Assembly: GCF_036321535.1 (NCBI RefSeq) | Contig: NC_087453.1 | Coordinates: 496,001 to 560,000 of the forward strand | DNA from: Camelus dromedarius | Lineage: Eukaryota | Length of the DNA stretch: 64,000 nucleotides | Direction of reading: 5' to 3' | Shown here: piece by piece, positions 2,641 through 45,367 of the stretch | Layout of the letters: each line of letters begins with the position of its first letter | Position numbering within the stretch: position 1 is the stretch's first letter | Notes under the pieces: model-generated | The model's database searches: none | The model's input: only the letters and a program-made list of their open reading frames with translations | Told to the model about the DNA's origin: nothing | Made by a program: the position numbers and the translations under genes

Positions 2641-2964
2641 TAATAACGGTTGACATAGCTTCTTGGTTACGTCTTTCAAACAGACGGTAACATTTTAGTG
2701 TTTGTGGAGTCAGTTTAGAAGATTGTGTTCTCTTAAACGTGAAGATAGTAGGATACAGCAGAACAGAGGGAACAAGGAGAGCAGGATAGGAGGCGCAGTG
2801 TGCATCACGTGGAGTCAAAGTGGTACTTGGGAAACTGCGGTTGCAGATTCCAGGCAAAAAGTTTGAAAAACACTGTTTTTGGTGGGTTCCACTTGCACTG
2901 AATGACATCTCCTTGGCGTCCTGTTTACTTCGTGGGCTTTCCCCCACTACGTTCCAGGTTGCGC

Positions 2965-3407
2965 TGATGAAAAGTTAATCAGTTGATCTAAGAGAGAAAT
3001 GGAAATTTTATTTGGGCCAAATTGAGGATTATAACCCAGGAACAGCATCTCAGAATCCTCTGAGAACGGTTCTGCCCATAGGAAGTCAAGGCAGTCAGGT
3101 AACTTTTCGAGACAGAGGGCTGTATGTTAAATGGCGCCTTACTGACGGTTCACACAGTCCAGGTTTAGGCGTCATCATGGCCCCTCACGGGACCAAGAAG
3201 GAGTGTTGCCTTTAAGGAGCCGTCTCGCTGATGCTGGGAGAACGCCAGTCTTTACAGTCGGGCAGGCGTTTCTGAGGAGCGGGCAGGCCTGGTCAGCACG
3301 CAACGCAGACACACAGTGCACAGTGCCGGGAGAGAGGAGGCCAACGGGCAGAGAAAAAACCACGTCTAAGTCCTTGTTTTGCCGTAAAATGTGTATTTTG
3401 TTTCACA
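2965..3407 (-). mobile_element. LTR, probably the 3' LTR of an antisense ERV
   Basis: Minus-strand TG...CA termini (TGTGAAAC at 3407, ...TCATCA at 2965), immediately preceded on the minus strand by a polypurine tract AAAGTGGGGGGAGT (3408-3421). Confidence 0.7.
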
Positions 3408-6400: not shown

Positions 6401-6990
6401 AATTCAGTTTCGGAGCCCAGAAGAACCCCGTCTTGGCCATGTCAGGGCCTGATTTCCTTCAGCTGTCAACTAAGTACTCGCAAGCACACGTAAACCCAGC
6501 TGATCAGCTGCCCGCACAGGAAGCGTCTGTCCTTTGAGGCACAATTTCCCAGGATTAATTTCATAGCCTAATTCAGAGGTGCGGGTGGAACAACGTCCCG
6601 AGGGTGGAGTGGGGGACGGCGCGGTGCTGCGGCTGAGTCCGGCTCTGCTCCCGGAACCAGCACGCACCTCCCGGAGGGTGTGGAGCTGACAGACGACGGC
6701 GCCAAGGATGGGCAGGAGGAAGGTGCAGGAGTCGCAGCGAGTAAGGAGGGCACCGCGGGCCTTTCCCAGGCAGTGTCTCCCCAGCAGCAAAACCGGGGAG
6801 GTTTTGAGCTAAGGGTGCGTGCATGTTGGTGAAGGGGCCTGAGCAGAGGGGGAGAGTTCAGCGTAGACTCGGGGCTAAGGCAGACAGAGACTGAGCTGCA
6901 GTGATGGAAGCCGGGAGAGTCAGAAAGGCCACGTCCTCCCGCGCTGGGCTCCCGCTGGCTGGGCAGCAGAGCCCTCAGGCTGGTCTTCAC
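3408..6990 (-). mobile_element. Degenerate ERV internal region (ERV1/MER4-like, non-coding)
   Basis: A mostly AT-rich block abutting the PPT/LTR, in contrast to the GC-rich flanks. No intact gag/pol/env ORF appears in the ORF track. A matching 5' LTR and PBS were not identified, so the right boundary is uncertain. Confidence 0.5.
4561..4699 (+). mobile_element. tRNA-derived SINE (camelid Vic-1-like), nested in the ERV
   Basis: tRNA-like head GGGGGCGGGTGCAGCGCAGGTGGCAGAGAGCACGCTTAGCATGCAGGAGGTCCTGGGTTCCATCCCCAGCACCTCC with A/B-box remnants, an (AAAT)n stretch, AATAACCTCCCCC and an A-rich tail. No CCA or acceptor stem. Confidence 0.85.
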
Positions 6991-7099
6991 CACTGAAACG
7001 GAAATGGGGCCTTTACAGCTGACGCACTGTCTCTGCTCCTGCCACTTCTCCTGCTGGTTTCAGTCCTTTGTTCTTCTGTTCCCTTAAGGTCTTATTCCT

Positions 7100-7223
7100 G
7101 GGGAGGATGTAGCTCAGGGTCAGAGTACGTGCCTAGCATGCATTAAAAATATTAATTAAAAATAAACAGACAAATAAAAACCTAATTACCTCCCCCCAAA
7201 ATAAAAAATGAATTAAAACCACA
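7100..7223 (+). mobile_element. tRNA-derived SINE (Vic-1-like) with the B-box region deleted
   Basis: Head GGGGAGGATGTAGCTCAGGGTCAGAGTACGTGCCTAGCATGCAT, then AAATAAAAACCTAATTACCTCCCCCC and an A-rich tail. Candidate TSD tcttattcct (7090-7099) / tcttattact (7224-7233). Confidence 0.8.
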
Positions 7224-7429
7224 TCTTATTACTGAGAGCTGCTCCAGTTCAAGGCCAAACATTGGGAACAGCTCAGATCATGAAACGGGGAGGCCAGAAA
7301 TGGCTTCTCGTGCCAAGAAAGCTAGGCCTGGTCCTCCTTCTCCGGGACCGCCTGCCCCGCAGCGCCCCGTCCGCCAGGTACCGCCAGGTACCGCCAGTCT
7401 TCCCAAACCGAGCCTTCCCAGCAGGTTCC

Positions 7430-7830
7430 CAGCGGTGTCTCTCTGGCTTTGGCTTGCGTTTCCCTGGTGGCCAGTGATTTGAGCTCCTTTTTAACATGCA
7501 TGTGGCCTCTTTTATACTTTTCGATATGAAGTGTCTGTTCAATTATTTTGTTCGTTTTAAGAAAACTGGGCTTTTCAAATTTATTGAGTTTTAAGGTTAA
7601 GAAAATACAGTTCTTTATCAGATATGTGTATTTTGAGTCTTTTCTTTCAGTCGATGCTCTGTCTTTTCATTTTTCTCATGGGCATCTTTTAAAGAGCAGA
7701 AATTTTTGATGTTTATGAAATCCAGTTTATCGACTTTTTTTAAAGTGCTTTTCATGTCCTTTTAAAGAAATATTTGCCAGCCCCAAGGCTGTGAAGGGTT
7801 CTTGTTTCCTAGGAACTCTGCGATTCAGCT
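7430..7830 (-). mobile_element. L1 ORF2/3' fragment, antisense
   Basis: TGGCTTGCGTTTCCCTGGTGGCCAGTGATTTGAGCTCCTTTTT and TTCTTTATCAGATATGTG resemble recalled antisense L1 ORF2-end sequence. Confidence 0.65.
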
Positions 7831-9214
7831 TAGATGCTGATGATCTCTCTTGAGCTGCTTTCGGTGAGAGGCCCCTGAGAGGCCCCAGCGCCGTCTGTGG
7901 GGCGGCCTGCCCTTGCCCTGGGCCAGTGCCCTTCCAAGACCAGCTGAGAGCCCGTGGTCGTGGGACCCCTCCCCCTGCCTAGCGCCTCCCCCAGCATTGG
8001 CGGTGGGCTCTGTCCCATGCTCCACGTGTTCCGGGCCACAGGCAGGATCGTGTCCCCTGCAGCCCAGCATCTGCCACGCAGACGATACTACATCAGCGGC
8101 CAACCCCTCCTGCAGCGGCAGGTCCTGGAGACCCCGGTGGGCTGTGTGGCCAGGAGTGTGAACTCAGACCTCCGGCCTTGGGAGCAAGCCTCGTCTGCGT
8201 CTCCGGGGAGGATGCGGGCTCTGGCATTGGAGGCCCAACTGGAACCCCAGTCACGCCAGACTCTGCGCACAGGCCCCGCCTGGAGTCCGCGTGTTCGGTC
8301 AGGGCATGTCGTGGGACTGGGGTGCAGCCCACCCCACTCTCCCTCAGTGGTCACTGGGGCATCTCCAGCAGGTCATTCTGGGGAAGACCCCATGGAGACA
8401 GGGCACCCAGGATGGTGGGCGGTGGGCCTGGGGTACAGGGAGGAACCACTCAGCCCTCAAGGCCCTGCCCGGGAGGAGGACCTGCCAGTGGTCAGACCTC
8501 AGATGGGGGCAGGAAGGGGTGCAGCTGCCAGCTCCTCCTGGGGGGGAGGGTGCGCTTGTCCAGCGTCTTCACCAGGATGGCCCTCTGCTCAGGGACTGGT
8601 CTGGGGGCCCCTGAAGAGGTTCAGGTTGTGGGGTGGGGGTGCATTGGTGGAGGTGAGAGCCCACCATGCAGAGGCATTTTGGAGTCAGGTCAGGGAGAGC
8701 AGCTGGGGCTAGCCATGGTGGAGACCCTTCCTGGGGTGTCACCTCGTGGTCAGATCGCCCCCCCGACCCGTCCCCCATTCCCAGTGGGATGTGTCCCCTG
8801 TGACCCTTTCCCCATGAGCCAGGGGAAGGCTGATCCCTCCCCACAAGCTAAACCAGGACCCCCTGGGATGCTGATGAGATCTGGGACCCTCCCATCCATG
8901 GACTCAGCAACCCACTTGCTCCTGGGGCAGGGTGTGACCTCCTTCCCTTCTGGGAGGGTCGCTGGGTGTGTCCTTGGGAGGGTTCTTGACAGCCCTTAAA
9001 GTTCTGCTGGGGCGGGTGTCTTGCTGGGTGAGTTCTGCTGGGTGAGGCTGCTGGGCCCCGCCGAGGACCAGACCATACTGCAGGTGGACGTGGCTGGGCC
9101 CTGCGGAGATGCCGCGGGGGGCCTCTGGGGCTTTTCCAGTGTTTTCAGGCAAAGGCAGTGGGCCTTAGAGGGCGAGCGTTAGCAAGGGGGTCAGAGGATG
9201 CTTCTGTGACTTTT

Positions 9215-9790
9215 TAATTTAATGTCATTTCAAACAAATGCACACAAATGTGTAGTAAATGTGCAAAGAACTTTCATGTACTCTAGACTGACCAGCTGCT
9301 CACATCGTGTCCTGAGTGGTTTGTCGTATGTAAGAACTTTCATTTCTGAACCGTCTGAGCAAGTTGCAGGCACCATGCCGTTTACCCCTCCTGCTTCATG
9401 TGGGAACTGGTACTTCTTGTCAGTTGTCAAGAGGAAGTTCAGCATCGATGCAATATTACTGATGCCAATTCAGATTGGAACCGTCTAGTAATTTCACAAG
9501 CGTGCTTTCCTGACAAATCCCCTCTGAGAACCCAGGCCACATTCTGGGTCTGGACGTTCTGAGGGTCATTTGCCGAGTCTGTGATGTCTCCTTGAGTCTG
9601 GTTAAGGTTTGCCTGTGAGCCCCTGTGCGTCGTGCCCAGCGCCCATGAAGTCAGGCTGTCCTATTTCTGCTGACGTCCTGTCCCTGGGCGTCTGCACCAC
9701 AAAGCCACCTTTCCCTTTGTGGTTGGTAGGGACCCTGGGGAGATACGGAGACTCCGTGCTTCACTCACATGATGAAGGCTGTGGCCACTG
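9215..9790 (-). mobile_element. Ancient L1MC/ME-like 3' fragment
   Basis: TTTCTGAACCGTCTGAGCAAGTTGCAGGCACCATGCCGTTTACCCCT resembles the recalled L1MC/ME 3' end. Boundaries are approximate. Confidence 0.5.
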
Positions 9791-10079
9791 TCCTTTCCTA
9801 GACTTAGTCCCTCCACGTCCCTCCACGTCCCTCCCAGAGCAGAGTTTTGAAAGGACTGTTCTAACAGGGATGCCGGTGTGGACGGACCTGCTGATGACGT
9901 AGGGAGTGCAGAGGGGTCCAGGGTTAGGGTGAGGCCTGCTTGACAAGGAGAGGGAGGGCTGAAGAGGTTGAGGAAACCTGCGTCTGGAGTTTGGGGGAGA
10001 ATTCCTGCTGAGATGAGGAAACGGGCTATTGGATCTGGATGCCTGTGAGGCCAGAGGGCGATGCAGGGTGATGGGAGTC

Positions 10080-10560
10080 TGTGAGGGTGGTCATGTCCCT
10101 GGTCTCCAGGAAGTCCCTGAGAGTGAGGGTCCTTGGCTTCATGCAGGAAAGAATTCAAAAGTAAAATGAAAGCGGATTTATTCAGGGAGATGCACGGTCC
10201 CTAGACAGAGGGTGGGTTGTCCCAGCACGACAGGCCCCGGTGTGGTGGTTTTATGGGCTCGGGAACTTTAGACACTAACAAGTGGGGGGATTATCCCAAC
10301 TATTTTGGGAAAGGGGCAGGGACTTCCCGGAGTCCACTTTGGGGCCTTGTATGGTCAGCTCAGGACTGTCACGGCGCCTGTGGGGATGTCACGTGGCAGC
10401 TGAAGTATTGTGTGAGTGCATCATGAGGCTCAGGGTCGACTGGAAGACCAGTCTTCCGCCATTGTGGGCTTTGTTGTCTCTAAGCAGCTCATGTCGCGCC
10501 CCCAATGGCCGCGTCATGCTTCTGAAGGCTGTGCCCTGCCCCCTTCCCTCCCATCAACCC
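10080..10560. mobile_element. Probable solo LTR
   Basis: GGTCCTTGGCTTCATGCAGGAAAGAATTCAAAAG...GGATTTATT...GGTTTTATGGGCT resembles recalled ERV1 LTR motifs. Ends not precisely defined. Confidence 0.45.
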
Positions 10561-10831
10561 AGAGAGGGCCTGGAGGACAGGTCACGATGTGCATGTGCTG
10601 AGACGCCTTCTGTATGCTCTTCCTTCCCGCCAAGCAGGAAGCAGGCGTGTGACGTGACCTCGGAGCACAGCAGTGTCAGGCTGCCTTCCGTCCCAGCCCC
10701 GTGGCTTGCTTCTGACTTTTGCTGTTGTTGTTCTCTCTTTGTTTGTACTTCTGATTTTTGTAAGCAAGTTTTGTACAATTGTTTTCTTCTTTAACAAGTG
10801 CTCTTGGAAAAAACTCTATTCCAGAACATTT

Positions 10832-11243
10832 TGTTACCCAAAGCGGAGTTTACCTCTTGGTGTTGAGCCAGAGATCGGGAGGAGGAAGCAGTAACTAGCT
10901 GCAGCAGGTAAGGCAGCAGGAATCCCACTCAGTGTGTCCTCAGCAGCAAAACTGGGGAATCTTAAGCTGAGGGTGCACGCAGGTTCGTTAAGGGGCCCAA
11001 ACAAAGCAGAATTCAGCAGATTTGGGGCCAAGGTCGACAGAGTCCACGCTTTGGCTGATTGAAACCAGGAGTCAGTCAGCATCAACCCGTCCTCCACCTG
11101 GTGGGGCCTTGGCTCCTGCAGAGCTCAAGACCGTGTCAGCTGTCCGGGTGTCCCTTGAGGAGGAACTAGGGCTCTTACTGCTGAACTGCCGCTTCTTGGC
11201 TGCTCTTCCTGTTCCTGCATTCCCTCACTTACCCCTATTTGCA
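10832..11243. mobile_element. Probable solo LTR about 0.8 kb upstream of the HELZ2 start codon
   Basis: TGTTACC...TTTGCA termini. The internal motifs GGTGGGGCCTTGGCTCCTGCAGAGCTCAAG and GAGGAACTAGG...CTGCATTCCCTCACTT resemble laurasiatherian ERV1 LTRs (recalled). Confidence 0.55.
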
Positions 11244-12026
11244 GACAGCCCCTGGTTTGGCATCCCTGGAGCGGGAGGGTTCTCCAGCCCAGGGCGCTCA
11301 GGGCTCCATCATTTCCTTGTCAAACATCATCTTCGTGTCGCTCTCAAACTTTCCTTGAAAGTTCCCTTTTAGGCCCAGCAGTGTCTGCAGGGACCAGTTT
11401 CAATCCCAGCTGTGCTGGGCACCACCCCTTCCCCGCCGTCCAGCTTCCTCCTGCAGCCCTGGTGCTGCTGGTCCTGCCTCCCACCTGCTCTGTTCTTCTG
11501 GCCCCTCCCACGGCCCCATCCAGGCAGGTGTGGGTGCCTTGTTCCCAGGAGACAACCTTCATGTCACAGAACAAGGGGTGCTGTCCTTGGGAGTCAGGAG
11601 ACCCAGAGCCCGAGGGACCTTGGAATGCAAAGGCCTGGAAGCGGGGCTTCTGGGGGGTGGCGCCGAGAGCCCTGGGTTCCCAGGGCTCTCCCTGGTCTCT
11701 GGGCAGCCTCCTTCCCGTGCAGCCCGCCTGGCTCCTTGTGGGCAGGACCCAGAGACCCTACAAGAGGCCAAGGCTGGGCTGGTCTCGGTCAGGTCAGCGT
11801 CATGGGGCCCAGCTTCCCTGGACTAGACACCCCTCTCCCATCATGTTAGCAGAATTCTCGACCCTGCTGCTGCTCCCTTGGCCCCTGGCCTGTGGGAGAG
11901 GAGAGTGTGTCTGAGCCTGGACCCAAGGCGTACAGCTCTCCTGACCTCATTCCTTGCTCTTGCCCCAGACTTCCCACTTTTGGTGAACATCCCCAGAGGA
12001 CCCCCGGAGCCAGGCCAGCAGCAGGG

Positions 12027-15000
12027 ATGGAGTTGCCAGGGTCCGGCACACAGCCCACCAGCCCCAAGGCCACCCAGGAGCCGTCCCTGGCCAGCCCGCG
12101 CGCCCTGGTGGACCTGTGTCTGGCCTGCTCCCGCTGCACCCCACATCTCAGTGAGAGCACCTATCTGCGGAGCAGGGTGGAGCACAGCTGTGCCTGCGAC
12201 ATCCTGCTGGCCCGCCTGAAGAGAGCCGCCGAGAGCAGTGTCTGGCGCAAGGTGGACCGCCCGCCCAGCTTCCCGCAGCCTGCGCGCTGTGAGGTCGGCC
12301 GCTACTACAGCCCGGGGCTTGGCTGCAGGCACCACCACAACCAGTGCACCTTTGCCAGGAGCCCCAAGGGGGCGCTAGTCTGGTCCTTTGAGCTCGAGCA
12401 CAACGTTGGCCACCTGTGGGTGAAGGTGGGGGCGCAGAGCGGCGTGGCCCAGGGGAAGCCGCTGGCCCCAGCCGACGCCGTCCTTGCGGAGTTTGGTGGC
12501 CACTTCCAGACACTCTGCTCTCCCTGCTTCCAGCGCCGCCCCCCGGGCATCTGTCCGGTGGAGCCCCACAGCTGATGCCTCGATCATGGGAACTGCCCCA
12601 CTCTCCTGGCTCGCGTGAGCACAAGGGGCTGTCGAAAGCAAGTCCTGGCGGTGCGGGTAGATGTCTGGGGCCACCAGCCCCTGGCCTACTGCAAATGCGT
12701 GTAGCGAGGGCGTCGGTGCCAGCACGGCGCGTCCTGCCGCCGCTGTGATCACAACACTGTGGAGGTGCCTGTGTGGGAGGCCCAGCTTGGTCAGAAGGGC
12801 CTGCTCACGGCCCTTGCCCTCAGTGGGGATGGGCACACAGCCCTCCACGGCCAGCGCCCCAGAGTCCAGCTGGACTGCCACGCCTGCCTGTCACCTGCCG
12901 CTCCCAGGAGGCCTCCGAGAACCACTGCTCCCCCCCTGGAGCACACACAGATGCTGGAATTGAAACTAGTCGTGCCCTTGAAGCACCGCAGCCTGCCTAC
13001 TGGGCTCGCCCCTCTGGAGCTCTACCCGCGGTAAGGACGGGAAAGCGGGGTTTGCGGATGGGGGATGAACCCCCTTCAGCTGGAACCAGGATTCCCTGTC
13101 TTCTGTGTGGCCTCTGAGGGGTGGGGAAGGGAGGTCCACGGAGGCCACTCCTGCCAGGTGCTGGGTGTGCAGCAGTGGGTGGGATGGGGTTGCTCCCTGC
13201 CTTCTGCCTGGAATCAGCTTTGCTCCCCGACATGGACGGGCCAGTGTTGGGCTGAGGGCCCTCACCCCCGTGTGGCCTGCTGATCACCCCCGCCCCCTCC
13301 AGGCCCAGCCTCTGTGAGTTCGGGGACTTATGAAACAAGGTGCAAAGCAAGAGCTGCAGGAGTGGACCCAGCATTCTGGACCGTGGAGCTGAGGTGGTCG
13401 GCGGCCTGGCAGGATGGGCTGGGGTCTCACTGCAAGAAGCTGCTGGCTGAGTACCAGGACAGTGCCAGTGAGGTATTGGTGGTAAGTGGGGGCCGTGAGA
13501 ATGGGGGCAGGGCTGGGCCAGGGTTGCCCTGCTGACCCCTGGCTTCCTGGGCAGTTGGCTGAGACCCCTGACCATGTATCTGTCGGCTGCAAGCGGCCCC
13601 TGGTGCGGTGGACTTGGGAGAGGCAGGCGGCGCACACCTGGACCTTCACCATCTGTTCTGAGGTGAGGGGCTGCACAGTCAGGGGGCAGCTGGGGTCTGG
13701 GGTCCGGAGCTCTGCCCTGGGCAACCTCTCCTGAGTCTGGGATCTGGAGCAAGCCTGTGTCTCCCGCTGGGGTTGGTGCAGAGAGGGAGCGCTGGGCTGG
13801 TCCCCACTGAGTGCCCCACACTGCCCCCATCACCTGGGCCACAATGGCTATCCAGGCTGGCTCAGTGACCCCATCTTGCAGAGGAAGCCTCGAGGTTCAA
13901 AGAGGCCAAGGGCCCTGCTGGGGTCACAGCCAGGAGGGAAGGCAGGGTCTGTGCTGCAGCCTGGACCTTGATGGGCAGGGTGGATTCCAGAGGCCACCTC
14001 ACCATCCATCTTCTGCCCCAGGAGCCCCTGCGATGTGTAGCCCTGCTCAAGCAAGACTTTGGAGCAGACGTCTCACTGGTGGCCCCCAGCCTCTCAACAG
14101 GCCGGGTCTTTGCCCAGAGCGAGCACTTCTGCACGCCCAGCTGTCTGGCCGTGTTCCGGGTGGGGTGCTCAGGCAGAGCGCTTCCCCAGGCACCTTCGAG
14201 CAATGGGTGGTCTTTGACTTTGGCTGCCGGCTGGTGCTGCTCAGGAAGCTGGAGTTGCAGGTGGGCCAGGAGCACTTCCGGGGCCCTGGGCAACGCCACA
14301 CCTGGCCACCTCCCTGAGGAGCCGGACCGCTGGCACACAGGCAACCGCCACGTGGTGCCTGGCATGGAGAGGATGGCGGTGCCCAGGTGGCCAAGTCCGC
14401 GGGGTCTGCTCCAGCCCTGGAGGCCCCTGACCAGGGCTCCATCTTCCCCACCGACCCCGGCAGAAACTGCACTGGGCTCTGTGTGAGGAGGAGGCTGCTC
14501 AGCGACACCCGGTGGCCAAGTGAGTGGGGCTGGCGGGGGCAGGGGCTGCCGACCCATGTCCTCCCCCGAGGCTAAACTGTCGGGGCCTGGCATCCCTGAG
14601 GACAGCACTGGAGACATCAGTCCTGGACACACTCTTGCCGCCACAGGGACCCCTGTACGCTGAGAGATGCCCGACATGGACGAGGGCTTTCTGCTGAGCC
14701 GCGCAGTCAGCACGGCGCTCGTGGCCCCCGTGCCTGGGCCTGATCCCAGGGTGTGTGGGGTGTGGGTGGAGACGCGGCCCAACTCGGGGCAGGTGCTGTG
14801 GCTGCTGCTGCCTGCCCACTGTTGCGCGGCCCTGGGGCTACAGCCCAAGCCTGGGCACCCCATCTTGGAAGTGCAGTTCCAGAATGACCCGCTGCCCTTC
14901 CACCTCTGGCACCAGGCGGTGGACGCGCTGCCAGAGGAGAGCCTGGTGGTGCCTGACCTGTCAGCCTGCACCCTGCCCTGCCCTGGGCCTGTCTCGCCCA

Positions 15001-18000
15001 CACTGCAGGGCGACCGCAGGCAGAAGCAGGCTGTGGCGGTCATCCTGGGGACCAGCCCTGGGGTGGGGGCAGCCTGTTGCCCCTCTGCTCGTCTGTGGCC
15101 CCTCTGGCACGGGCAAGACCTACACGCTGGCCATGGCCTCCCTGGAGGTCGCCTGCCAGCCCCTCGTAAGGTGCTCCTCTGTACGCGAACCGACAGGTGA
15201 GCTGGGGCTGTTGGGCTGCTCTCCCGCCTCCCCGGCCTCACCTCAGGAGAAGAGGAGGGACCTGGGGGTCTGGGGCTCGGGCTGGTTCCCGGGTTCACTG
15301 GAGATCTCGGTGGCTAGTTCCAGGAGAGGGTGGGGGCTGGGCTGGGTGGCAATGAAGCCCCTGGGGCCAGTCCCAGGCATTTGAGAGTCTACCTGACAGT
15401 CAGTACCGGGCTGAGGACAGGGGACGCCTGTGCTTCAGGCCCGGTGCATGGTCTCCTGCCCACAGAGGAACATGGGCCAGGCAGAGTGGTGGGTAGGGTT
15501 GTGGCTTGACCCACCCAGCATTTCCTGGGGCGAGACTTGGGTGTTCTGAAAATCCTGTCATAGTTCCCCCCAGATGGACAGCTGCTCAAGCACGGGGCTC
15601 CCCATCTCTGCCCAGGGCTGACTGGCTACGGGACTGGGGCTCCAGGGGCCCGTGTCAGGCAGAGGCCCTGGCTGGTGGTCCCCTTCGGAGAGGTGGGGCC
15701 AGGTCTTGCTGCTCCCTGGCTGCTCGGGGTCAACCCCAGTCTCGGGCCGCGCTGGTGGCCCGGCCCACGCTGCGCCCTCCCCAGGGCTCTGCTGCTGTCT
15801 GGTTCTCATCGGGCACTGACCTCCTGCTTCTCTGTCTGTCCCCTGTGCTGCCGGGTTGGACTGCCTGTTGTCTGGGCAGGGGGGACGCACGGGAGGCACT
15901 TTAGCAGACAGGCGCTGTGCCCTTCTCCCCCACAGGGCGGCCGACACCTACGCTGCGGAGTATTTCCACCCCTACGTCAGCAGCGGTCACCCTGAGGCCG
16001 CTCCCCTCTGGGTGGTGCACACGGACTGCCCACCCAGCCTGACGGACGCGGCCACGCTGAGGTACTGCTGCCTGACCGAGGACCACCAGGCCTTTCGCCT
16101 GCCGACCTGGGCCAAGCTGGAGCGGCACCACATTGTGTTGGCCAGCACCTCCTGGACACGCCAGCTCGGGGTGCCCATTGGCTTCTTTTCCCACATCCTC
16201 ATTGACCAGGCCTCCCAGATGCTGGAGTGGGAGACGCTCACGCCCCTGCGTTACGCCGCGCCCGGCACCCGAGTGGTGCTGGCGGGCAGCCACGTGCAGG
16301 GCACGCCCGGCTCTTCAGTGTGGCCGGGCGCCGGGGCAGACGTGCTGCGGCACCGCCTCCTCGAGCACCACCGGCAGCAAACGCTCCAGGTCGCCCAGAG
16401 GAGCTGCACTATTTTGTACAAGAACTACCGCTCCACCCAGACCGTTGTCCGCTTTGTCTCCGACCACGTCTCCCTAGCCAGCGGCCACTCCATCCAGGCC
16501 AGCGGCAAGATCCCTGGCCACCCCGGTGGTACCCGCTCCAGTTCTGCCGCGTGGCGGGCAGCCCCAGTGCGACGTCTCCACGACGTCTTGGCTGAATGCA
16601 GCCGAGGTTCTTCAGGTTGTCGAGAAGGTACAGGAGGTCTGTAACTCCTGGCCCCAGTGCTGGGGCCACCGGGAGCAGAGGAGCACCGCGTTGTGTCCCA
16701 CAGGGCCCAGGTGAGACCCTGCCGCCCAGGGCAGCTTCCCCCAAGCCCCGTCTCCCGGGGAAGCCTCCCTCCCCCGTGGCCTGGTAGGCCTCCTCAGCCT
16801 GCTTTCCTTCCATACGAGAGGCTGAGATATTCAGATACTCACCTCCCAGGGCCTGGGAACCAGGGTCCCGTCCTTGGCAGGGGACGCTATGCCTCACTGG
16901 GGCCCCTCACCTGACCTGGTGGTGTGTCTCCAGTGAGCGCGATGAGGCAGGAGCTGAGGAAGCGGGACCTGGGCCAGGTGTCTGTGGGCAGCTTTGAGAA
17001 TCTGCCAGGTGGGTGATCGGTGCTGGGGGAAGGGGGGCCCCTCCCCTCCCCCTCCCCTCCCCCCTCCCTTCCCCTCCCACTTCTGGCCCAGCCTGACCCT
17101 GTAACTGCCCCCCTTGCAGGTGAGACTTCCGGGTGGTGGTGCTGGGCACACTGCACACCACCCACAGCCTGATGAGCCGGAGGCACCGGCCCCAGGGTGC
17201 TTCACGGACGCCTGCGTGCTCAGCACCGTCATGACCCATACACAGGCCCAGGTGGTGGCCGTGGGCGATGCTGTGGCCCTCTGCTCCCTGGAGGCTTGCA
17301 GCAAGCTCTGGGGGAGCTTCCTCCGTGAGTGTGTGGAGCACGGCGCCGTCTGCCCCGAGGGCCTGTCTCTGGAGCAGATCCAGAAGCAGAGCTGGGCCAG
17401 CTGCTGGCAGCCTGCGGCCCAAGAAACAGAAAGGTTTGTGGCAGCAGATGCCAGGGACACTGTTCCAGAGGAGGGGGTAGTGGGGGGTGGGCCACAGCAC
17501 ATGTGGCAGGGGCATGGTCTCCAGAGGCGCTGTGGCAGGACCGTCAGCCCCAGAGATCAGGGAGCCCGAGGGCCCTGTGGGCTTCTGGCCTTTTGACAGG
17601 GAGCTCAGCAGCAACGAGCCCCGCCCGCAGCAGCTCCTGGACCACAGCCGGGACGTGACAGTGACCGTCCAGGAGGATGGGCTGCTGGACAGCTTCGCCC
17701 GGCCCTTGTCTCCCCCGCCGGCGTGGCAGTATGTGAACCTGCCGGAAGCCAAACAGCAGAAACTTCTCCACAAGTGGCCCCAGCAGCACTGCTGCCACGC
17801 CTTCCTGAGGGAGAGCCTCCGGGAGGTGAGAGCGTCCCGCTGGACGACGGGAAGTTTGGGCCCATCCAGCTCAAGGGCCGCCTGCACTGCGGGATGGCCT
17901 TCCCTGGGGACGAGGCGCTGGTGCAGGTGCTCGGCTGGGCCAGGTGGCCCCAGGGCCGCGTGCTGAGCATTCACCAGAGGGAGCATCGCCAGCTGGCGTT

Positions 18001-21000
18001 CGTGTGCCATGTGGACGAGTGGGAACCCTGCGTCATGACCCCCATCGATGGCTCTGCCACCAAGGTCCTCGTGGCTGGGCTGCAGGACCCGCTGCAGGTG
18101 CCTGTCCACCGCCTTCTGCAGGGCTGCGTGCAGCGTGTGGGGCACGAGCCACTCTCGGTGGAGGCCTGGCACCACCGCCTCTTCTGGGTGTGTGTCCTTC
18201 TGTGGCGGGAGCGCTTCTACTACCCACTGGGCGTCCAGAAGGTGCTGCCCGAGGCCACCACCTGGGAGCAGTCTCCAGATCTTGGACCTGGCCTGCAGGC
18301 TGAAGGAGCCTCCCCACACCCGGCCTCGGTCCGCGAGGCGCTGCACAGGCACCACGCTGAGCTCAGCCGGGCGCCCAGCTGCCTGGAGGGCTGCCGCAGC
18401 TTCCTGGCCTTCGCCACGGACACCCGCTCACCTGCAACCTGGACGGCGCCATCAGCGCCAGGACCGGGGCCCCACGTATGAGGTGGCCACGCACATCGCT
18501 GACGTGGCCAGCTGCATGCCCAGGGACGGGGGCTCTGGGCCTGGAGGCCTGCAGGCGGCGGGGGCCACCATCTACGCCCCTGACCAGGAGCAGTGTCCAT
18601 GCTGCCAGCCAGCCTCCTGCCAGGCCAGGACCACTTAGCCGTCTCCCTCTTCTTGACGACCGAGAAGGGCAGCAACCAGCTCAAGAGTGAGTGCTTTGCA
18701 CCCGCTGTGATCTGCTCTGACCACCAGCTGACCTGTACAGAGGTGGAGCAGGTGATCAGGGGGCACCGGGGCGCCGGCCTCAAGCTCAGCCTGCCTGGAC
18801 TCTGTGGACGCCTGTGTGGCAGCCGCGTGCTACTTCTCCCACATGCTGTGCCAGCGCCGCCTCAGGGGCGACAGTCATTACAAGCAGCTGGACGGGGACA
18901 GCGTGCTGGGCTTCCGCGTGGCCCACATGATGGTTGAGGAGTACATGGTCCAGTTCAACAGCCAGGTGGCCAAATTCCTGGTGGACAGTGAGGGTACAAA
19001 GGGGGTCACACCCTTGCGGGTGCAGTGTGAGCCCAGCTTCGGCTGGCTCAGAGCCCTGAGCCAGGACCACGAGGACTGGGTGCCGTTGTCCCTGCACCTC
19101 TGCCACCACCGGCTGGGCAGCTTCAGCTCCTACATCTCCCCAGACCTGCAGTTCCACGTCCTGGTCTCCGTCTAGAGGTAACTCCAGCTTGCAGCCCACG
19201 CCCAGGGCTTCATCTAACTGGCGATCTCATCTCCACGGACGACGTGCACCCCTCCCTGGCCCCTGCCCTCCTTGACTTGAGCAGGGCCCAAGGCCACACA
19301 GTCTTCGGCCGCCAGGGCATGGAGCTGGATGGCCACTACTCGCTGCAGGTGGACAGGTACACCTGGGCCACCTCACCCATTTGCAGGTACATGGATGTGG
19401 TGCTGCAGCGGCAGATCCTGCTGGCACTGGGCCAAGTAGGGTCCCCCTACGTGCCCGGGGACATTGACGAGCTCTGCCAGGACTTCAGTTGCCAGTACAG
19501 GTGTGCCCAGAGCTTCCAGCGCTGGGCTTGTGGCCTGAACCTGGCCGCCTGGCTCAAGACCCAACCGCAAAGCAAGCTGGGCTTTGTGGTGGCCGCGGAG
19601 GACACCTGCTTCAAGCTGTTCTTCCCAGCCAGCCACAAGACCCTTCTGGACCTCGACCCTGTGCACTGCAGCTCCCTGCAGCCACCCAAGCACCCCTGTG
19701 GCCGGCCAGGTGGCTGCGGCTGCAGCTCCTATGGCGGCGCCGCCCTTACTCCACGCAGGTGGGTGGGCAGTGCCCCCCACTGCCCAGCACCCCGCTTGAC
19801 CCATGTGTCCAGCCTGTGGACTCCACCCTGTGGCAGCAGCTGCTGAGGCTGATGAAGAAGCCGAGGGCGGGCAGCGGGGCGAGCCCAGCTTCGAGCCCCA
19901 GCAGCGGGAGCCGGGACAGGCGAGGTGGAGCACCTGCGGCCCCTTCGTGGAGGCAGCCTGGGAGCTGGGCAGTGGTGATACACTGCACGTACAGCTCCAG
20001 CTCAGTGCCGCCCTGTAGCGTGGGCTCCTGGAGCCGGTCCTGCAGCTGTGGACTGTGGCGCCTGGCCTCAGCCTTTGCCTGGAGCACGTGGAGCAGCCAG
20101 GGGACGGCTTCTCACCCTGTGTGCCCCTGGTGGGTCGGGACTGGCACCAGGACGTGGAAGACGAAGCCCACGTGTGGGAGCCCTTCTGCTGCCTGGAGTC
20201 GGCCACCCGCGCTGCGGCCGAGAACGATCCTGTGACTTTGCAGGATGTGGCCATACCCTGCGGGGTGGAGCGGACGCCCCAGGGGCAGCTGCAGGGCACC
20301 TTCTGCCTGGAGCCCGCCTTCCTCCAGGAGCGAGGCATCGACATCAGCTTTGGCCACTGCTACCCGTGCATCCAACTCGAAGGGCTGCTGGCCACGCCAC
20401 GCCCCCGGCCAGCTGCGTCATCCCTGTCCGAAACATTGACCCTGACACACATACCTGGGTGACACCCGGGCTGGCGGAGGACTGAAGCCCAAAGGAGGGC
20501 TGGGCCAGCTAAGTAGGTGCCCTTCTTCCTTCAGCACGTGGCCATGGGTGTGGTTCCGGAAGAGGGGCTAAGGCCTGGGGCCGCTTCACCGCCGACGAGC
20601 TGCCCAGGCAGCTCCGGGGCCTGTGAGTGGCTTCCGGGGAGAGGCTGGCGGGTGGGCTGGTTGGGCTGGGAACCCCTGTCTCCTGGGGTGGTGGCCCGTG
20701 GGCCGTGCTCCTTGCCCGGGAAGATCCTGCTGGTGTCCGGTATCCATCTTCACCCCCACCTGCCCCAGCTGCCAAGACGAAGCTGTGTGTCGGCTCAAGG
20801 GTGCATCCCCGTGGGTCATCAGCATAGCCCAGGGCCAGCCCACCCCCCAACCCAGCCAGCAGCCCCTCCACAGAGGTGGGTGGATGGGGACCCCTTGGCT
20901 TCACCTCTCCAGCCCTGCCCCGGCCAGTGCTCAGAGGTCTGCCTCCTTCCTCAGGGACCCCCAGCAGTTTCCTGGAGTGACCAGCCTTCGACATTCCTGG

Positions 21001-23365
21001 AGGCCATCACAAGATGAACCCAAGCCAGAATGAGGCCGTTAGGGAGGCTCTGAAGAAGCAGTTCACGGTCATCTGGGGCCCACCAGGGGGACCCACCTTG
21101 GAGCTGCGGGACTGCCCGAGCAGGCAGGTGGGGGCTCTGCTCACCCCATGCTCTGCCCACAGGCTCTGGGAAGGCGGTGCTGGGTGTCCACACTGCCTAC
21201 TGGCTTTGCACGTCAAACGAGGAGCAGGTGCCAGCCTGTGGCTCCCACAGTGGCCAGCTGGGGGGGGGCCATCTTGTGCTGCAGCCCCTCCAACCAGTCG
21301 GTGGCGTGCTGGCAGGCGCACCGGGGCAGCTGGAGGGGCTCTGCCAGGGGGAGTTGGGTCCGGGAGCCATCACTCACACCCTGGCTTCCTCAGGACTTCT
21401 CCTGAGCAGGAGGGCAAAGCTGAAGCCCCTTCGTGTGCACAGGGAGCAGGAGGAGGCCACTGAGTGCCCAGTGCCGGGTGTGGGCAGCAGGGGCCCCCTA
21501 AGAAGACCCCTCAGGAGGGGAGGCCCAGCCAGACCCTCAGGTGCGGCCTCTCCACTGTTGTTCTATACAGGGTGGAGGCGAGGGGCGGGGGCTGTCCAGC
21601 TGGCCCTGCCTCGGGCAGGGGCCAACACGGCTTCACACAGGTCTTCTCACTGCCACCCACCCCCAGGAGCATCGCCCTGCACCACCGGGTCAGTCAGTCT
21701 TCCAACGCCCATGCGGCTGACGTCAGGGCCTCGGTGCCCGGCTGCAGGAAGGGGAGATCTTCTCCAAGGAGATCTTCAGCTGGTAAGCAGCTGAAGCCAT
21801 GGGGCTGCCTCCTGGCCTAGAGCGCAGGGATGCAGCCTGGGTGACCATATGGTGTCCCCACAGGTACAGGAAAGTCCTAGGGCAGGCTTGGAAATTCGAG
21901 CTTGACCGGCACCGCACTGTCCTGTTCACGTGCTGGCATGCGGGCTCCTCCAGCCTTGAGGACCTGGACATCCGTCAGATCCTTGCGGATGAGGCGGGTG
22001 TGGCCTCGGAGCCAGAGACCCTCATTCCCCTGGTGAACTTCTCCCAGGCTGAGAAGGTGGGTAAAGCAGGAGCTGAGAGCCCAGGCGTGTGTCCCTGGGG
22101 GTGCAGAGGTGCAGGGAATACGAGGGCAGCTCCAGGGTGGGGCGCTGCTGACCGAGGGGTCAGGACATGCCTGCCTGTCCTCCCAGGTGGTCCTTCTCGG
22201 GGACCACAAGCAGCTGCGGCCTGTGGTCAGGAGTGAGCTGCTGCAGAAGCTGGGGCTGGACCGGTCTCTGTGGCAGAGGTACTTCAGGGGTGCCTGCCTG
22301 TGGGATGTGCAGTACCACATGCTGAGTGCCCAGAGCTCTTGGGCCCAAGGTGGGCGAGGGCCAGTCTGGCCCTGACTCCTGTCCTCGCCTTCCAGCATGA
22401 GCGCAGCTGTGCGTTCCCCTCAGGGGAGTTCTACGAAAGGGAACTGAAGATCTGGCAGGGCCTGGGCAGGCCGCCCAGCGTCCTGGGCCACGCTGACGAG
22501 AAGGGCTGCTCGGTCATCTTTGGCCACTTGCAGAGCAAAGAGAAGAGCCGGCTGCTGTCTACGGACGAAGAGGGTGAGGATTCCAAGGCGAAGGATGAGG
22601 AGATGGCAGTGGTGGCGGCCCTCCCCCGGGCCCTCCCTGGTACCCCTTGCTTGGGAGGGCTCCCTGGGGGAGGAGGCAGAGGAGCTGAGGGAGCCCAGGG
22701 TGGGACAGACATCAGGGCTGGCTTCACCGGCACCCCTGGTCCCTCAGGTCTGCATCGCCAGAGAGCTGCCCCTGAGGGGGACAGTGGGCCCCAAGGACAT
22801 TGCCATCCTCACGCCCTACAACGCCCAGGTGGCGGAGATCAGCAAGAGACTTGAGCATCAGGAAGATGTTCCACGAGTGACTGTGTGTTCCATCACCAAG
22901 ATTCAGGGTGGGGCTGGCACCGGGTGGGAGGCCTGTGCGCGAGGGGTCAGGTGAGTGGGTGGCAGGGGCTTCACCAGACTCGCCTCGCCTCCCAGGGAGC
23001 CAGTGGCACTATGTTATAGTGAGCATGGTCCGCACCTGTGACAAGAGTGACATAGACCCGTGACCGACCAAGAACTGGCTGAAAAACTCCCTGGGCGTCA
23101 TTGCGGACCCCAGCCAAGTGACCGTGGCCCTCGCCCAGGCCCAAGAGGGGCTCTGTGTCATCGGTGAGAGCTGCTCAGGGACGGAGGGCTGGGGCCGCTC
23201 CTCCTGCTGGCAGGGCTACCTCTGACTCCTGCTTCCCCTCACAGGAGACCACCACCTTCTGCGCTGCTGCCCGGTCTGGTCCTGACTCCTGGACCTCTGT
23301 GAGGCCCAGCAGAGCCTGGCCCCGCCTCAGAGGTGAAAGTCTATGGGAAGTCACACTCTCCCTGA
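12027..23365 (+). pseudogene. HELZ2: HELZ2 (helicase with zinc finger 2 / PRIC285) pseudogene with its introns retained (not processed)
   Basis: Collinear peptides match HELZ2: ALVDLCLACSRC, FEQWVVFDFG, RWHTGNRHVVPG, GPSGTGKTYTLAMASLEV, FFSHILID, YTWATSPICRYMDVVLQRQILLAL, LNPSQNEAVREAL, ILADEAGVASEPETLIPLV, VVLLGDHKQLRPVV, DIAILTPYNAQ. Approximate ancestral exons: 12027-13030, 13303-13481, 13555-13662, 14022-14519, 14571-15196, 15936-16710, 16934-17008, 17120-21086, 21163-21315, 21394-21540, 21667-21782, 21864-22056, 22187-22321, 22396-22614, 22748-22907, 22996-23163, 23245-23365. In-frame stops at 12573, 12702, 13331, 19173, 19179, 19215, 20483, 23061 and 23283, plus many frameshifts and lost donors. 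Confidence 0.93.
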
Positions 23366-24863
23366 AGACCTCACTGCCCTCAGGCTGCCAGGACAGCACG
23401 GGAGAGTTCAGAGCCCTCTTCTGCCACCGCCTTGGCGGGCCCCTCTCAGCAGGACCCACAGGCCTTCAGTGGTCACTGCCAGACTGAGCAGGGGTCGCGG
23501 GGGGCCAGCCGTGGCCGTGCACAGTTACCACCCGGGCTGGGAGCAGGCCAGCCTCGCCTTGTGTGCAGACTTGGGAGGAAAGGGGACGAGTCTGCGCTCC
23601 ACCCTCCGGAGCTGCTGCACTGGGGCACTTGGTGGCAGGGAGCATCTCGGGTTGGGGTAGTCCTAGTGTCACTGGGAATGTTTGGGGTCAGGACGGGAAC
23701 CCCGTCGGGGCTGTTCTTGGACTGTCTCTGACTACACTGAGTGTGGTCTGTGGGGCTCAATTTATTCTCTAGTTTCAGATAAACCAAAAGCTAGCGTCTC
23801 TTACTGGAGCAGGGTCCTCAGCCCAAACTCAAGGCAGGGAGGCTTCCCCGGAGGGAAGACAGGGCCTTTTCTCTGCCATCAGTGCCCCGTCTAACTCAGA
23901 CCCACACCCCTGTGTCCTTCAGGGACTGGCCCCTGGCAGGGGAACCAGGTGACGAGCCCCTTGTGGACGTGGGGCTCCACTCTGAGCTCTGCAGCCCCCT
24001 CGCAGCTTCAGGCCTGCTCCCAGGGCAGGGCCACCCAGCTGGGTCTGCGTTTCTTTGCAGCACTGAGGACCTGGATCTGCCCCTCAGGCTGTGTCTGTGT
24101 CCTGCCGTGTGATGCCGCAGAGTGTGACAGTATGGCTTAGCCCCTGGCCAGCACGCAGCACCATGAATGTGTCAGAGGCTTAAGAGACCTGGGAGGGGCC
24201 CCAGGCTAAGACCGCTCCAACCCTGCAGTGCACTGTCCACAGCCGGGGAGGGGGGTGCTGGGCCTTCCTGGCACAGCTGGGGGCCCCTCAACCAGCCACG
24301 TGTCAGTGTGGGGGGGGGCTGTCCTTCTGGCCACACCGCCCTGGCCACACCTTCTCTTCTGAGGTCTGTCGTGGTGACCACCATGGTGTCTGTGGTGAGG
24401 GGCGGAAAGCTAGTTATCAGTGTACTGGGGGTGGCTCTGGGCCTCTTCCCACTGACAGTACTCCTCGGCCATAGCCGGGGCACACGGCACAGCCAGGGCT
24501 GTCCCTCCTGGACCCGTGGACGCAACGGCCACATTGCCTTCCAGAAGTGGACGTGTGTGTGGGGAGGGAGCGAGCTGCTGGCCGATCTGGGGGGTGACAC
24601 GACCACAGAGGATGAGGACAGACTCCCCAGGTCACCACACGGGCTGGACGCCGGAAGTTGGTGGGGAGCGCTGACAGACTGCAGGGAGGACCACCCAAAC
24701 AAGAGCTGGCCAGGCTCCCTTACTGGGACCTCAGCCACCCCGGGTGGGCGTCACCCTGGGTGGGGCTGCAGTGAACTTCAGCTTCTTTTGGGGAGAAGAT
24801 AAGACTTTAATTTTTGTTAAAAGAAATGTCCTCTTGGCCATGGGCCCCCTGTCTTCGGTGAAG

Positions 24864-25066
24864 CTGGGGGCGGTGGTACTGGGGGCGGTGGAACTGGGGG
24901 TGGTGGAACTGGGGCGGTGGTACTGGGGTGGCGGTACTGGGGGCAGTGGAACTGGGGCGGCGGTACTGGGGGCGGTGGAACTGGGGGCGGAGGTACTGGG
25001 GCGGCGGTACTGGGGGCGGTGGAACTGGGGCGGTGGTACTGGGGGCGGTGGAACTGGGGTGGTGGT
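24864..25066 (+). repeat. G-rich minisatellite, about 14 copies of a 14-15 bp unit CTGGGG(G)CGGTGG(T/A)A
   Basis: Directly visible tandem array with variant units. Confidence 0.92.
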
Positions 25067-25458
25067 AACAGGGCGGTGACGGCCCCCAGTGGGGCCTGGG
25101 CAGGGCCTGGGGGTATTGTCTTCCCTTGGGGAATCCCAGCCCAGGAGGCGGGAAAGAGCGGAGCCTGTGCTGGGCCCACAGCTGGTCATGGAGGGGGTGG
25201 GTGGGGGAGATGTGGGAGGGGCTGGGGCCCAGGGGTGGAGCCCTCAGGGCAGCCACATGCTGGGCTGAAGCTTCTCGCTCCAGGGGTCAGTGTTCTGGAA
25301 AGACCGGCAGGGGCTCTCCCTGGAAAAGGTGCAGGAGCTGGAGGCCTGGGGCTTGAGGGTGGGCTGGGTTGGGTCAGGAAAGACACTCACAGCTGCTGCC
25401 GCCTTTCAAGTGTAAGCAGGTTGGTCTCTCTCATTGTGTGCATGTGTTTACTCTCCTC

Positions 25459-25484: not shown

Positions 25485-26486
25485 TCATCTCTCGGAAGGT
25501 GTGGTCAGGGGCAGGCCTGGCTTGCCCAGCCGACTGGGGGCAGGCCCTTCGGGGGGCCCTGGCCTGGTCTGCAGGGTGAGGCTGTCCCGCCAGGGCTCGT
25601 ACACCAGCGTGTAGCTCTCGGCCCGCTTGACGGTGAACCTGTAGGAGCGGTTGGGCAGCAGGTTCCGGACGTCGAAGGTGCAGGCGGCCACGGGGATGAT
25701 GCCGCACTGCAGGCACTCCTGCTGTGTCCGTGGGTCCAGCAGCTTGAAGCGCAGCTCAAACTGCTCGGGCACAGCTGGCTGGATGGTGACGAACCAGCGC
25801 AGGCTGACCCAGTCCTGGTAGGCCACCGACTCCTTGCGGTCGAACATGACAGGCATCTTGGTGCTCAACATGAGTCGGATGTGCGGGATCTTGGTGGCGC
25901 CAACGTCGGACACGAGGCGGTGCTTGATGTGCAGACGCCCCGGCACCATCATGGCCAGGAAGCTGTCCATGATGGCCGACAGGTCCGCCAGCCGCCGCTC
26001 CACGAGCCCCCAGCCGGCCAGGAAGGGCCGAGGGTCGGGCGACTCAAGCAGGGAGTCCAGCGCAGCGCGGCCGTGGTCCANNNNNNNNNNNNNNNNNNNN
26101 NNNNNNNNNNNNNNNNNNNNNNNNNNNNNNNNNNNNNNNNNNNNNNNNNNNNNNNNNNNNNNNNNNNNNNNNNNNNNNNNNNNNNNNNNNNNNNNNNNNN
26201 NNNNNNNNNNNNNNNNNNNNNNNNNNNNNNNNNNNNGGATCTCGATGTAGTAGGAGCACTTTCTGAGGAGCTCCATGCGGGCGTGGTGGCGCTTGAGCAG
26301 CTGGGGGCTCAGGTCTGAGGTCAGGAACTCGCGCAGAGCGTTGCGGCGCTCCACGTAGGTCCGCCAGGCCTCGGGCTCCAGCAGCTGCCTGTCCTCAGCC
26401 TCCTCTGCCTCCTCCTGGTCCAGGAAGGACTGGGGGCTGTCCAGCTTCATTTTGTCCAGGCCCAGGCCTGTCACCTGGAAATTCAT
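25485..26486 (-). CDS. FNDC11: Fibronectin type III domain-containing protein 11 (C20orf195 ortholog), single coding exon, 333 aa, interrupted by N gap
   Basis: [26 protein letters not shown]...[36 protein letters not shown]...[25 protein letters not shown] matches FNDC11 as recalled. The ATG at 26486 follows a splice acceptor (cccag|ACCATG; the exon starts at 26489). The ORF-track start at 26957 is intronic read-through. Confidence 0.92.
26081..26236. other. Assembly gap, 156 N
   Basis: Run of n. Together with 3 flanking bases it spans exactly 53 codons, so the FNDC11 frame is preserved. Confidence 0.99.
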
Positions 26487-27999
26487 GGTCTGGGAGCCGG
26501 GGAAGGGGGAGGGGGGAGGGCATGAGCTAGAACCATCAGACCGGCCTCTGCCACCCACCTGAGGGCTCGCTGGGGGCAGTGTTTGTGTGTGGGTGACTTC
26601 AGGCCCACTGCCCCTCCCACTGCTGGGCCCTCTGCCCTCCCCGGGGGCCGGGGGAGGAGGGCTCATCTCTCTGGAAAGAGGCTGCTTGGAGGGCCAGGCG
26701 GGCAGGCTGCAGATCTGGGTGCAAGTGGACGCTGAGGGGCCAACACTACTGGTTGTTGGCTCTGATGGCATAGGGCAGGGCTGAGACTGCGCTTGGGGCC
26801 AGAACAGCCTGTGCAGAACCCAGCCATTGACCAGTGGTGCGGCCACATCTGGATGGGGTCGCGGTGCCCCTCTGGAGCAGCTGAGAGGACTCAGTGTGAT
26901 CCTGTCTGAGTAGCACCAGACCTCAGGGGGGACACCACTGTCCTGCAGACCCTCCACGCCTCACTGCAGGTGCAAAGCAGAGGACCAAGGTCTCTCAGAG
27001 ACAAGGCAGCTGGGGACGGGGCCAGCTCGGGGGGCAGGCTGGCCGAGGCCTCAGCTCTGAGGAGTAATCGTGCCAGCTCCTGATGGCTGAGGGTGTGTCC
27101 TGGGGTATAACTTGGAGAGCTCACTGACTCCAGGAGAAAGGCCCCTAAGTGATGAGGTGTCAGCACGCTGCCTCACAGGGCGGGTGCCTGAGGCCAGGAC
27201 ACTTTGCAACTTGCTCTCAGTCAGGGCTTTGAGCCCAGCAGGGACCCCAGAGCCTGGGTCTCCTTTTGCACCCTCCCCCACGTGGGTTCCCAGCTCTGAG
27301 TGTCAGTGGGAGGGGGCCAGTGCACCCCCCAGGCCTGGCAGGCCGTGGCCACAAGGCTGGGGCTCCTCGGAGAAGGAGCCAGCACCCCTGGCTGTTGTCC
27401 CAGGTCCCAGCCACTTCCAAGCTCAGTGAGACAGAGCCAGTGGTTTCACTTGGGACATCTCATGTTGTCCCAACCCCGTGAAGTTTGGATGAATTACAAA
27501 TGGGAGCTGAGAGGCTAAGGGACCCGCCCCAGTCTGCACTGCTAAGTGCAAAGTGAGGCTGGGACTCAAGCTGGTCCCCCCACCCTCCGTTGCCCCCTCC
27601 CCCCTGCCCCACCGGCAAAGGCCAGGCCTTGAACTTCCTGGGGCAGAGGCAGACCAGCCTTGGTGCTGCAGAGAGGGTATCAGGGTGAGGTGCCAACAGA
27701 GACTAGGACCCAGGACTCCAAGTCCCATGGTGGCCGGAGGCTGGGGCAGATTCAGGCCACCTCTGGAGGGAACTCTTGGTCCAGATCTGGCTACGGGACA
27801 GAAGTGTGTTCGTTTGCCAGTGGCCAGCGGTCTCAGTTGGAAAACTGTCTAGGGGCTGCTGGTGAACTCTGGGGAAGAAGCTGCCTGCCCTGGCGGGCCT
27901 ACCCAGACCTACATTCTACTCGGCCTCCAACTTCATACCCCTGACCCCAAGCCCACTTCCCCTAAATCAACTTCCACTCGCGCCTGCCTGCCCACCTCC

Positions 28000-29564: not shown

Positions 29565-36463
<6,899 letters not shown>

Positions 36464-38961: not shown

Positions 38962-45367
<6,406 letters not shown>

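Follow-up and report, generated by a model that had tools for sequence, protein, structure and literature searches.

The HELZ2 remnant and its lesions

The window analyzed here is a 64,000-nucleotide stretch of the dromedary genome (Camelus dromedarius, NC_087453.1, positions 496,001 to 560,000 of the forward strand), and it holds a remnant of the HELZ2 gene at 12027-23365 (+), with 19 exons and 18 introns running from an ATG at 12027 to a terminal TGA at 23363-23365. HELZ2 has been described as an interferon-induced RNB exoribonuclease whose helicases allow the degradation of structured RNA (PMC10516660). The mammalian protein (PRIC285/PDIP1; horse XP_023482698.1, pig F1RMM8) contains zinc fingers, two UPF1-like SF1 helicases, OB_HELZ2 (PF25049) and RNB (PF00773). 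The camel remnant resembles it in orthologous position, 19-exon layout and end-to-end similarity, the domain order being taken from horse and pig; it differs in having no open frame past codon 182 and in changes at key residues of the first Walker B motif and of RNB.

The remnant was read with a frameshift- and intron-aware aligner written for this analysis, using five intact orthologues (rhino, horse, pig, pangolin and a bat) as references, and it has 61-63% identity to them across 2740-2765 aligned residues. HELZ2 matches by tblastn are spread along 12039-23324, with the frame changing repeatedly, and a cluster look-up recovered a Camelus ferus model together with full-length orthologues from beaver and bat. 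Over a 191-residue piece of the large exon, identity is 99% to a dromedary protein annotated as HELZ2 and 56-60% to four further pieces of HELZ2.

Depending on the reference, the alignment contains 12-14 stops, 32-35 frameshifts and 17-18 introns. Eleven true stops are in frame with all five references (12573, 12702, 19173, 19179, 19215, 20016, 20483, 20514, 20978, 23061 and 23283). A first-pass annotation of this DNA had listed nine in-frame stops; all nine triplets are stop codons at the positions given, eight of them in frame with the five references, while TGA 13331, which adjoins a frameshift, is in frame with three. The list was right but incomplete, as it did not include TAG 20016, TAG 20514 and TGA 20978, nor many of the frameshifts. 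These form 44 clusters, 31 of them recovered with at least four references and 24 with all five, and most are losses of 1-2 bases. Among the frameshifts already proposed, those near 12890, 12930, 14160 and 18425 were recovered with every reference, and the one at 23320 agrees with the final 13 codons being read in a different frame up to the terminal TGA; the lesion at 16934 appears instead as a non-canonical acceptor (four of five references), and the one near 17125 yields an exon-edge TGA at 17121. The latter stop, in frame with all five references, was excluded from the count as an edge effect; TGA 14428, in frame with three references, was not counted either. TGA 14521 was rejected as a stop, being located inside an intron of 51 bases (14520-14570, GT-AG), which is unusually short for a mammal and was probably shortened after gene death. 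Splice donors are lost at 21087 (GG) and 22322 (CT), and a GC donor is found at 21316.

Lesions are present from the first exon to the last. Exon 1 (12027-13030, +), the zinc-finger region, has the stops TGA 12573 and TAG 12702 and frameshifts near 12890 and 12930. Exons 2-5 (13303-13481, 13555-13662, 14022-14519 and 14571-15196, +) have frameshifts near 13325-13349, 13378, 14172, 14276, 14397-14457, 14665, 15063 and 15163, with the Walker A lysine of helicase 1 retained at 15115. The helicase 1 core, in exons 6-7 (15936-16710 and about 16933-17012, +), has frameshifts at 16525, 16569 and 16688, the exon-edge lesion near 16934, and a change of the Walker B glutamate to glutamine at 16207. The large exon 8 (17120-20622, +) includes a spacer, the OB fold (about 17730-17990) and RNB (about 18377-19433), with stops at 19173, 19179, 19215, 20016, 20483 and 20514 and about 16 frameshifts; within RNB, the equivalent of Asp1355 is changed to glycine at 18445 and that of Arg1923 to cysteine at 19382. 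Exons 9-19 (20769-23365, +), encoding helicase 2, have stops at 20978, 23061 and 23283 and frameshifts at 21267, 21304, 21489, 21731 and about 23323, and the Walker A motif is interrupted by a lost donor. Of nine residues important in human HELZ2 (K550, E668, D1346, D1354, D1355, K2180, E2361, S1920 and R1923), the camel keeps six and has changed three; the pig keeps all nine.

A functional HELZ2 is expected to have an open frame of about 2900 codons. Here the ATG at 12027 is followed by 182 codons before the first stop, close to the 180 first estimated, and the longest product from it would be 182 amino acids. The 18 introns at a syntenic locus do not correspond to a processed pseudogene, which would have no introns and a new site; the several inactivating lesions at the orthologous locus correspond to a unitary pseudogene. 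Upstream, a simple pattern resembling the interferon-stimulated response element has three matches in window 1-12100, the nearest at 9338.

Copy number, residual coding capacity and Camelus gene models

Five protein searches of the camel assembly (171 contigs), with queries covering the N-terminus, helicase 1, the large exon and helicase 2, gave HELZ2-level matches solely at this locus. The remaining genome matches are few and weak (E above 1e-6), including three RNB matches that read as DIS3-family exons and two helicase matches of the AAA_12 family. The first-pass annotation had left room for an intact paralogue elsewhere or just upstream; none appeared in the protein searches of the genome, nor was a second copy found in the 50 kb before or the 20 kb after the window, and the genome has no functional paralogue within the limits of assembly completeness. 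No camelid protein is found among 104 HELZ2 matches of 2182-5000 amino acids, and only the broken-model cluster among five matches of 336-2000 amino acids; exact look-up of five open reading frames of the window in the protein collection found none of them (0/5). The neighbourhood is that of HELZ2: a SAND-domain exon is found some 9 kb before the window starts, where human gene order would presumably place GMEB2, and the genes downstream are taken to be FNDC11, SRMS, PTK6 and PPDPF. Together with the lesions, these flanking genes bear out the initial call of a dead HELZ2 at its syntenic place. An assembly of 171 contigs may be incomplete; however, with a single locus in five genome searches, nothing in the 70 kb of flanking sequence, neighbours conserved at either side and no camelid protein among the long matches, it is very unlikely that this is a dead duplicate of a HELZ2 working elsewhere in the genome or in unassembled sequence.

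Residual function of a shortened locus, as a 182-amino-acid N-terminal zinc-finger peptide, a predicted protein of 790 amino acids or a regulatory RNA, is equally improbable. Codons 1-182 form an open frame with the lowest rate of change, 5 of 42 invariant residues, and camel proteins called HELZ2 are present in databases. Nevertheless, 5/42 greatly exceeds the 0-2% seen in intact genes. Of the 720-724 residues in the remnant that are invariant in 43 placental proteins, 135-137 (18-19%) differ, with changes in every region (12-30%); intact orthologues other than pig have at most 17 of 753 changed. The longest lesion-free run among 48 lesions is 210 codons, and at least as long a run arises in 83% of random placements (P = 0.83), so that the spacing fits chance; because the lesions are evenly spread, no domain has been spared. 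The camel models contain wrong-frame stretches and introns laid over lesions, with only partial Pfam matches, and the database HELZ2 proteins of camels are pseudogene artefacts.

Of the 785 residues of the dromedary model KAB1262810.1 that align to the window, 784 match, and its exons contain no change of frame (one of its short predicted introns is below the aligner minimum and was drawn as an insertion); for the C. ferus model EPY87820.1, which ends at TAG 19173, the agreement is 1222 of 1234 residues. Testable lesions are crossed in the shifted frame of the window in 8 of 8 cases by the former and 10 of 12 by the latter. A 1-base deletion at 18457-18461 (+), common to the dromedary model, and a 2-base deletion at 18788-18791 (+) are both absent in the C. 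ferus model, which indicates that decay went on after the dromedary-ferus split. Sequencing or assembly errors in a GC-rich region (63-67%) near a contig end could be suspected, as most frameshifts are losses of 1-2 bases read from assembled sequence, but this is the least likely explanation of all, since two independent Camelus models carry all or most of the testable lesions, the equally GC-rich SRMS and PTK6 are open, and indel errors would leave the substitutions at invariant residues unexplained, in agreement with the first-pass judgement.

Probable relaxation of constraint and age of the loss

In a leave-one-out control, the pig has changed 70 of 806 otherwise invariant residues, the next taxon reaching 17 of 753. 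The camel has the pig residue at 23 of these 70 sites, against 7 of 174 for the private changes of other taxa (Fisher p = 7e-9), and the stem shared by pig and camel is longer (0.106) than those of rhino and horse (0.042) or carnivores (0.057). Helicase motifs are altered in all eight further pig records checked. On the basis of these comparisons, constraint was likely relaxed early, near the base of Cetartiodactyla, and pig HELZ2 is a candidate for ongoing gene decay. The pig records (P0164, P0117 and relatives) have an open, eroded frame, and their C-terminus extends 6-21 residues beyond the horse end in the records compared.

A rough neutral simulation, with an assumed kappa of 4 and an assumed tenfold CpG rate, needs a divergence d of about 0.04 to reach 12 stops and of about 0.07-0.08 to reach the residue changes; this gap fits a pig-like relaxed phase preceding inactivation. 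Between dromedary and C. ferus, eight isolated residue differences were found in about 1230 codons (d about 0.002 for the pair). The earlier suggestions of a camelid host and of an old loss are both supported.

Here it is proposed, with high confidence, that the window holds the only detectable camel HELZ2, broken at more than 40 places from end to end, that Old World camels likely make no HELZ2, and that its inactivation probably goes back tens of millions of years and followed a likely relaxation of constraint in the ancestor of the even-toed ungulates. Such a course would comprise relaxed selection with the frame still open, on or near the cetartiodactyl stem, then inactivation on the branch leading to camelids, probably earlier than the camel-llama split, and finally a neutral decay that may still be running in the dromedary line; the loss of HELZ2 in toothed whales would be a separate event. 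A stop codon far upstream of exon junctions leads to transcript degradation by nonsense-mediated decay. Any transcript of the locus, with its stop at codon 183 in exon 1 and 18 junctions far downstream, would be expected to be such a target, and at most a 182-amino-acid zinc-finger fragment would be produced.

Several observations weigh against parts of this proposal. One of the five genome searches used a stricter first filter and the assembly may not be complete; the locus itself was read from assembled sequence, and lesion sharing among camels from predicted proteins rather than DNA. At least one of the 23 pig-camel changes is parallel, as C. ferus retains the ancestral arginine at 17213, and a fragment from the toothed whale Pontoporia carries one of the four shared residues that it spans, so that fewer than 23 of these changes belong to the stem. 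A faster neutral rate in artiodactyls could also lengthen the pig and camel branches. The clocks disagree, with indels (2/12) giving about 6 times the Camelus split and substitutions about 35-40 times, a figure that exceeds the age of the order and thus reveals poor calibration. In the annotation of alpaca, HELZ2 is given as a coding model of 1593 codons or more (PMC10873959), and the loss may accordingly be confined to Camelus. Furthermore, Turakhia 2020 (PMC7498332), whose method scores substituted and deleted residues, lists HELZ2 in its supplement as eroded in dolphin and killer whale only, from a panel that included alpaca, Bactrian camel and four ruminants.

The inactivation of HELZ2 in camelids is nonetheless regarded as probably older than the camel-llama split. 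The Camelus split dates to about 4-5 million years ago and the camel-llama split to about 16-17 million years ago, and with these dates both clocks point to a loss before the latter. As for the alpaca model, the variants Cys1440 and Thr1593 might correspond to the sole in-frame TGC/ACG pair 153 codons apart in the window (19935 and 20394, about codon 2050); on this placement the alpaca model would lack some 600 codons, a weak hint given a chance expectation of 0.17 such pairs. Alpaca studies have scored HELZ2 variants as high-impact, and these too may be pseudogene artefacts.

HELZ2 in other lineages and neighbouring sequence

The first-pass suggestion of a loss specific to the camel lineage does not hold. 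The erosion in dolphin and killer whale concerns the same gene in the same order (PMC7498332), and Pontoporia, a third toothed whale, fits it with a "HELZ2-like" patchwork model of 250 amino acids (NIG61694.1); the pig copy is also eroded. The lineages differ, camelids being absent from the HELZ2 entry of that supplement, and the whale and camel losses are likely independent because the frame is still open in the pig, which branches between them. Unitary losses of interferon-induced antiviral enzymes are also described for toothed whales (MX1/MX2) and ruminants (DDX60) (PMC7498332); unlike in those cases, a pig HELZ2 that is still open partly shares its erosion with the dead camel copy, which suggests a long relaxed phase before the loss. 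Camel HELZ2 is thus a new, well-supported case of a known phenomenon, the lineage loss of an interferon-stimulated gene. Neither HELZ2 loss in camels nor relaxed constraint in Cetartiodactyla was reported in the full-text literature searched; subscription journals, most supplements, TOGA and NCBI gene status were outside this search and may already flag the locus. HELZ2 is not among the entries in the portions of the Huelsmann 2019 supplements examined, and no artiodactyl names were found in the available supplement text of Huntzinger 2023.

A wider reading, possible but held only tentatively, is that constraint on HELZ2, a vertebrate-wide interferon effector, relaxed in the ancestor of Cetartiodactyla, that camelids, whales and ruminants each lost the gene on their own, and that what survives in pigs is an eroded copy whose helicase motifs are damaged. 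The 104 long matches and the best 120 of 719 include no protein from a camelid, ruminant, whale or hippo, a weak absence, as rabbit, tree shrew, mole and armadillo are also unnamed there. Among 198 proteins of at least 1500 amino acids, the sole ones closest to pig are 15 records from pig itself, with no unnamed long protein among them. A ruminant loss inferred from absence was rejected, given that clusters can hide behind short representatives, as those of beaver and Rousettus did. A metagenome scan for cattle or camelid host DNA gave one unrelated helicase locus among 237 pattern matches. Shaw 2017 (PMC5747502) names HELZ2 as strongly interferon-induced in seven of ten species (human, rat, horse, dog, two bats and chicken, with log2 fold changes of 3.2-6.6); it is unnamed for cow, sheep and pig, a weak gap, as pig ZNFX1 is missing too from the rows consulted. 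Pig HELZ2 has been reported as differentially expressed in a study of porcine epidemic diarrhea virus (PMC6719071). If this wider reading is true, most hoofed livestock would be natural HELZ2 knockouts or hypomorphs, and the interferon toolkit to be expected in camels, whales and pigs, and possibly in cattle and sheep, would change.

The most likely cause of the loss may be that other UPF1-like helicases induced by interferon, among them ZNFX1 and MOV10, made HELZ2 redundant; both have been described as related to HELZ2 and interferon-induced (PMC10516660). In other mammals, LINE-1 restriction by HELZ2 has been attributed mainly to helicase 2 (PMC9839780), and Helz2 knockout mice resist fatty liver, with altered liver fat handling (PMC7426972). 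Antiviral activity has been reported for dengue (PMC5316548) and in a meeting abstract (PMC7824690), and one report of a proviral role for a coronavirus is cited in the Discussion of PMC10516660. The first-pass idea that the loss could matter for MERS-CoV tolerance or retroelement control is speculative. Camels appear to be a long-standing natural knockout, which would make HELZ2 dispensable in a large mammal and offers a comparative system for what replaces it.

The neighbouring genes used as controls are free of such lesions. SRMS (29565-36463, +) and PTK6 (38962-45367, +) have eight stop-free exon cores each, with phase-compatible GT-AG junctions, encoding 487 and 456 amino acids as read from the window alone. 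Downstream of HELZ2, a stop-free frame at 25488-26960 (-), with 156 N inside, is presumably FNDC11. The first-pass description of intact neighbours stands for these three; PPDPF was seen as open fragments only. In SRMS, the junction after the SH2 exon (window 33914-34760) is ambiguous though the gene is open, and the linker seems a few residues shorter than in the human protein.

Between the upstream gene and HELZ2, window 1000-7800 has a lower GC content (35-52% in most 500-base windows) and resembles repeat remnants, including pieces like short interspersed elements near 4560-4660 and 7100-7200. A G-rich 15-base minisatellite with about 14 copies is located between HELZ2 and FNDC11 (24856-25073). 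On contig C4, an RNB exon, presumably DIS3L2-like, is present in two copies about 40 kb apart (L010:698-5001 and L011:572-4867) with 99.0% identity across 4.3 kb, being either a recent segmental duplication or a false assembly duplication. The contig of HELZ2 also has an AAA_12 helicase exon in an 824-codon open frame (C18:9437675-9438148), which by position and size is probably ZNFX1, a possible substitute.

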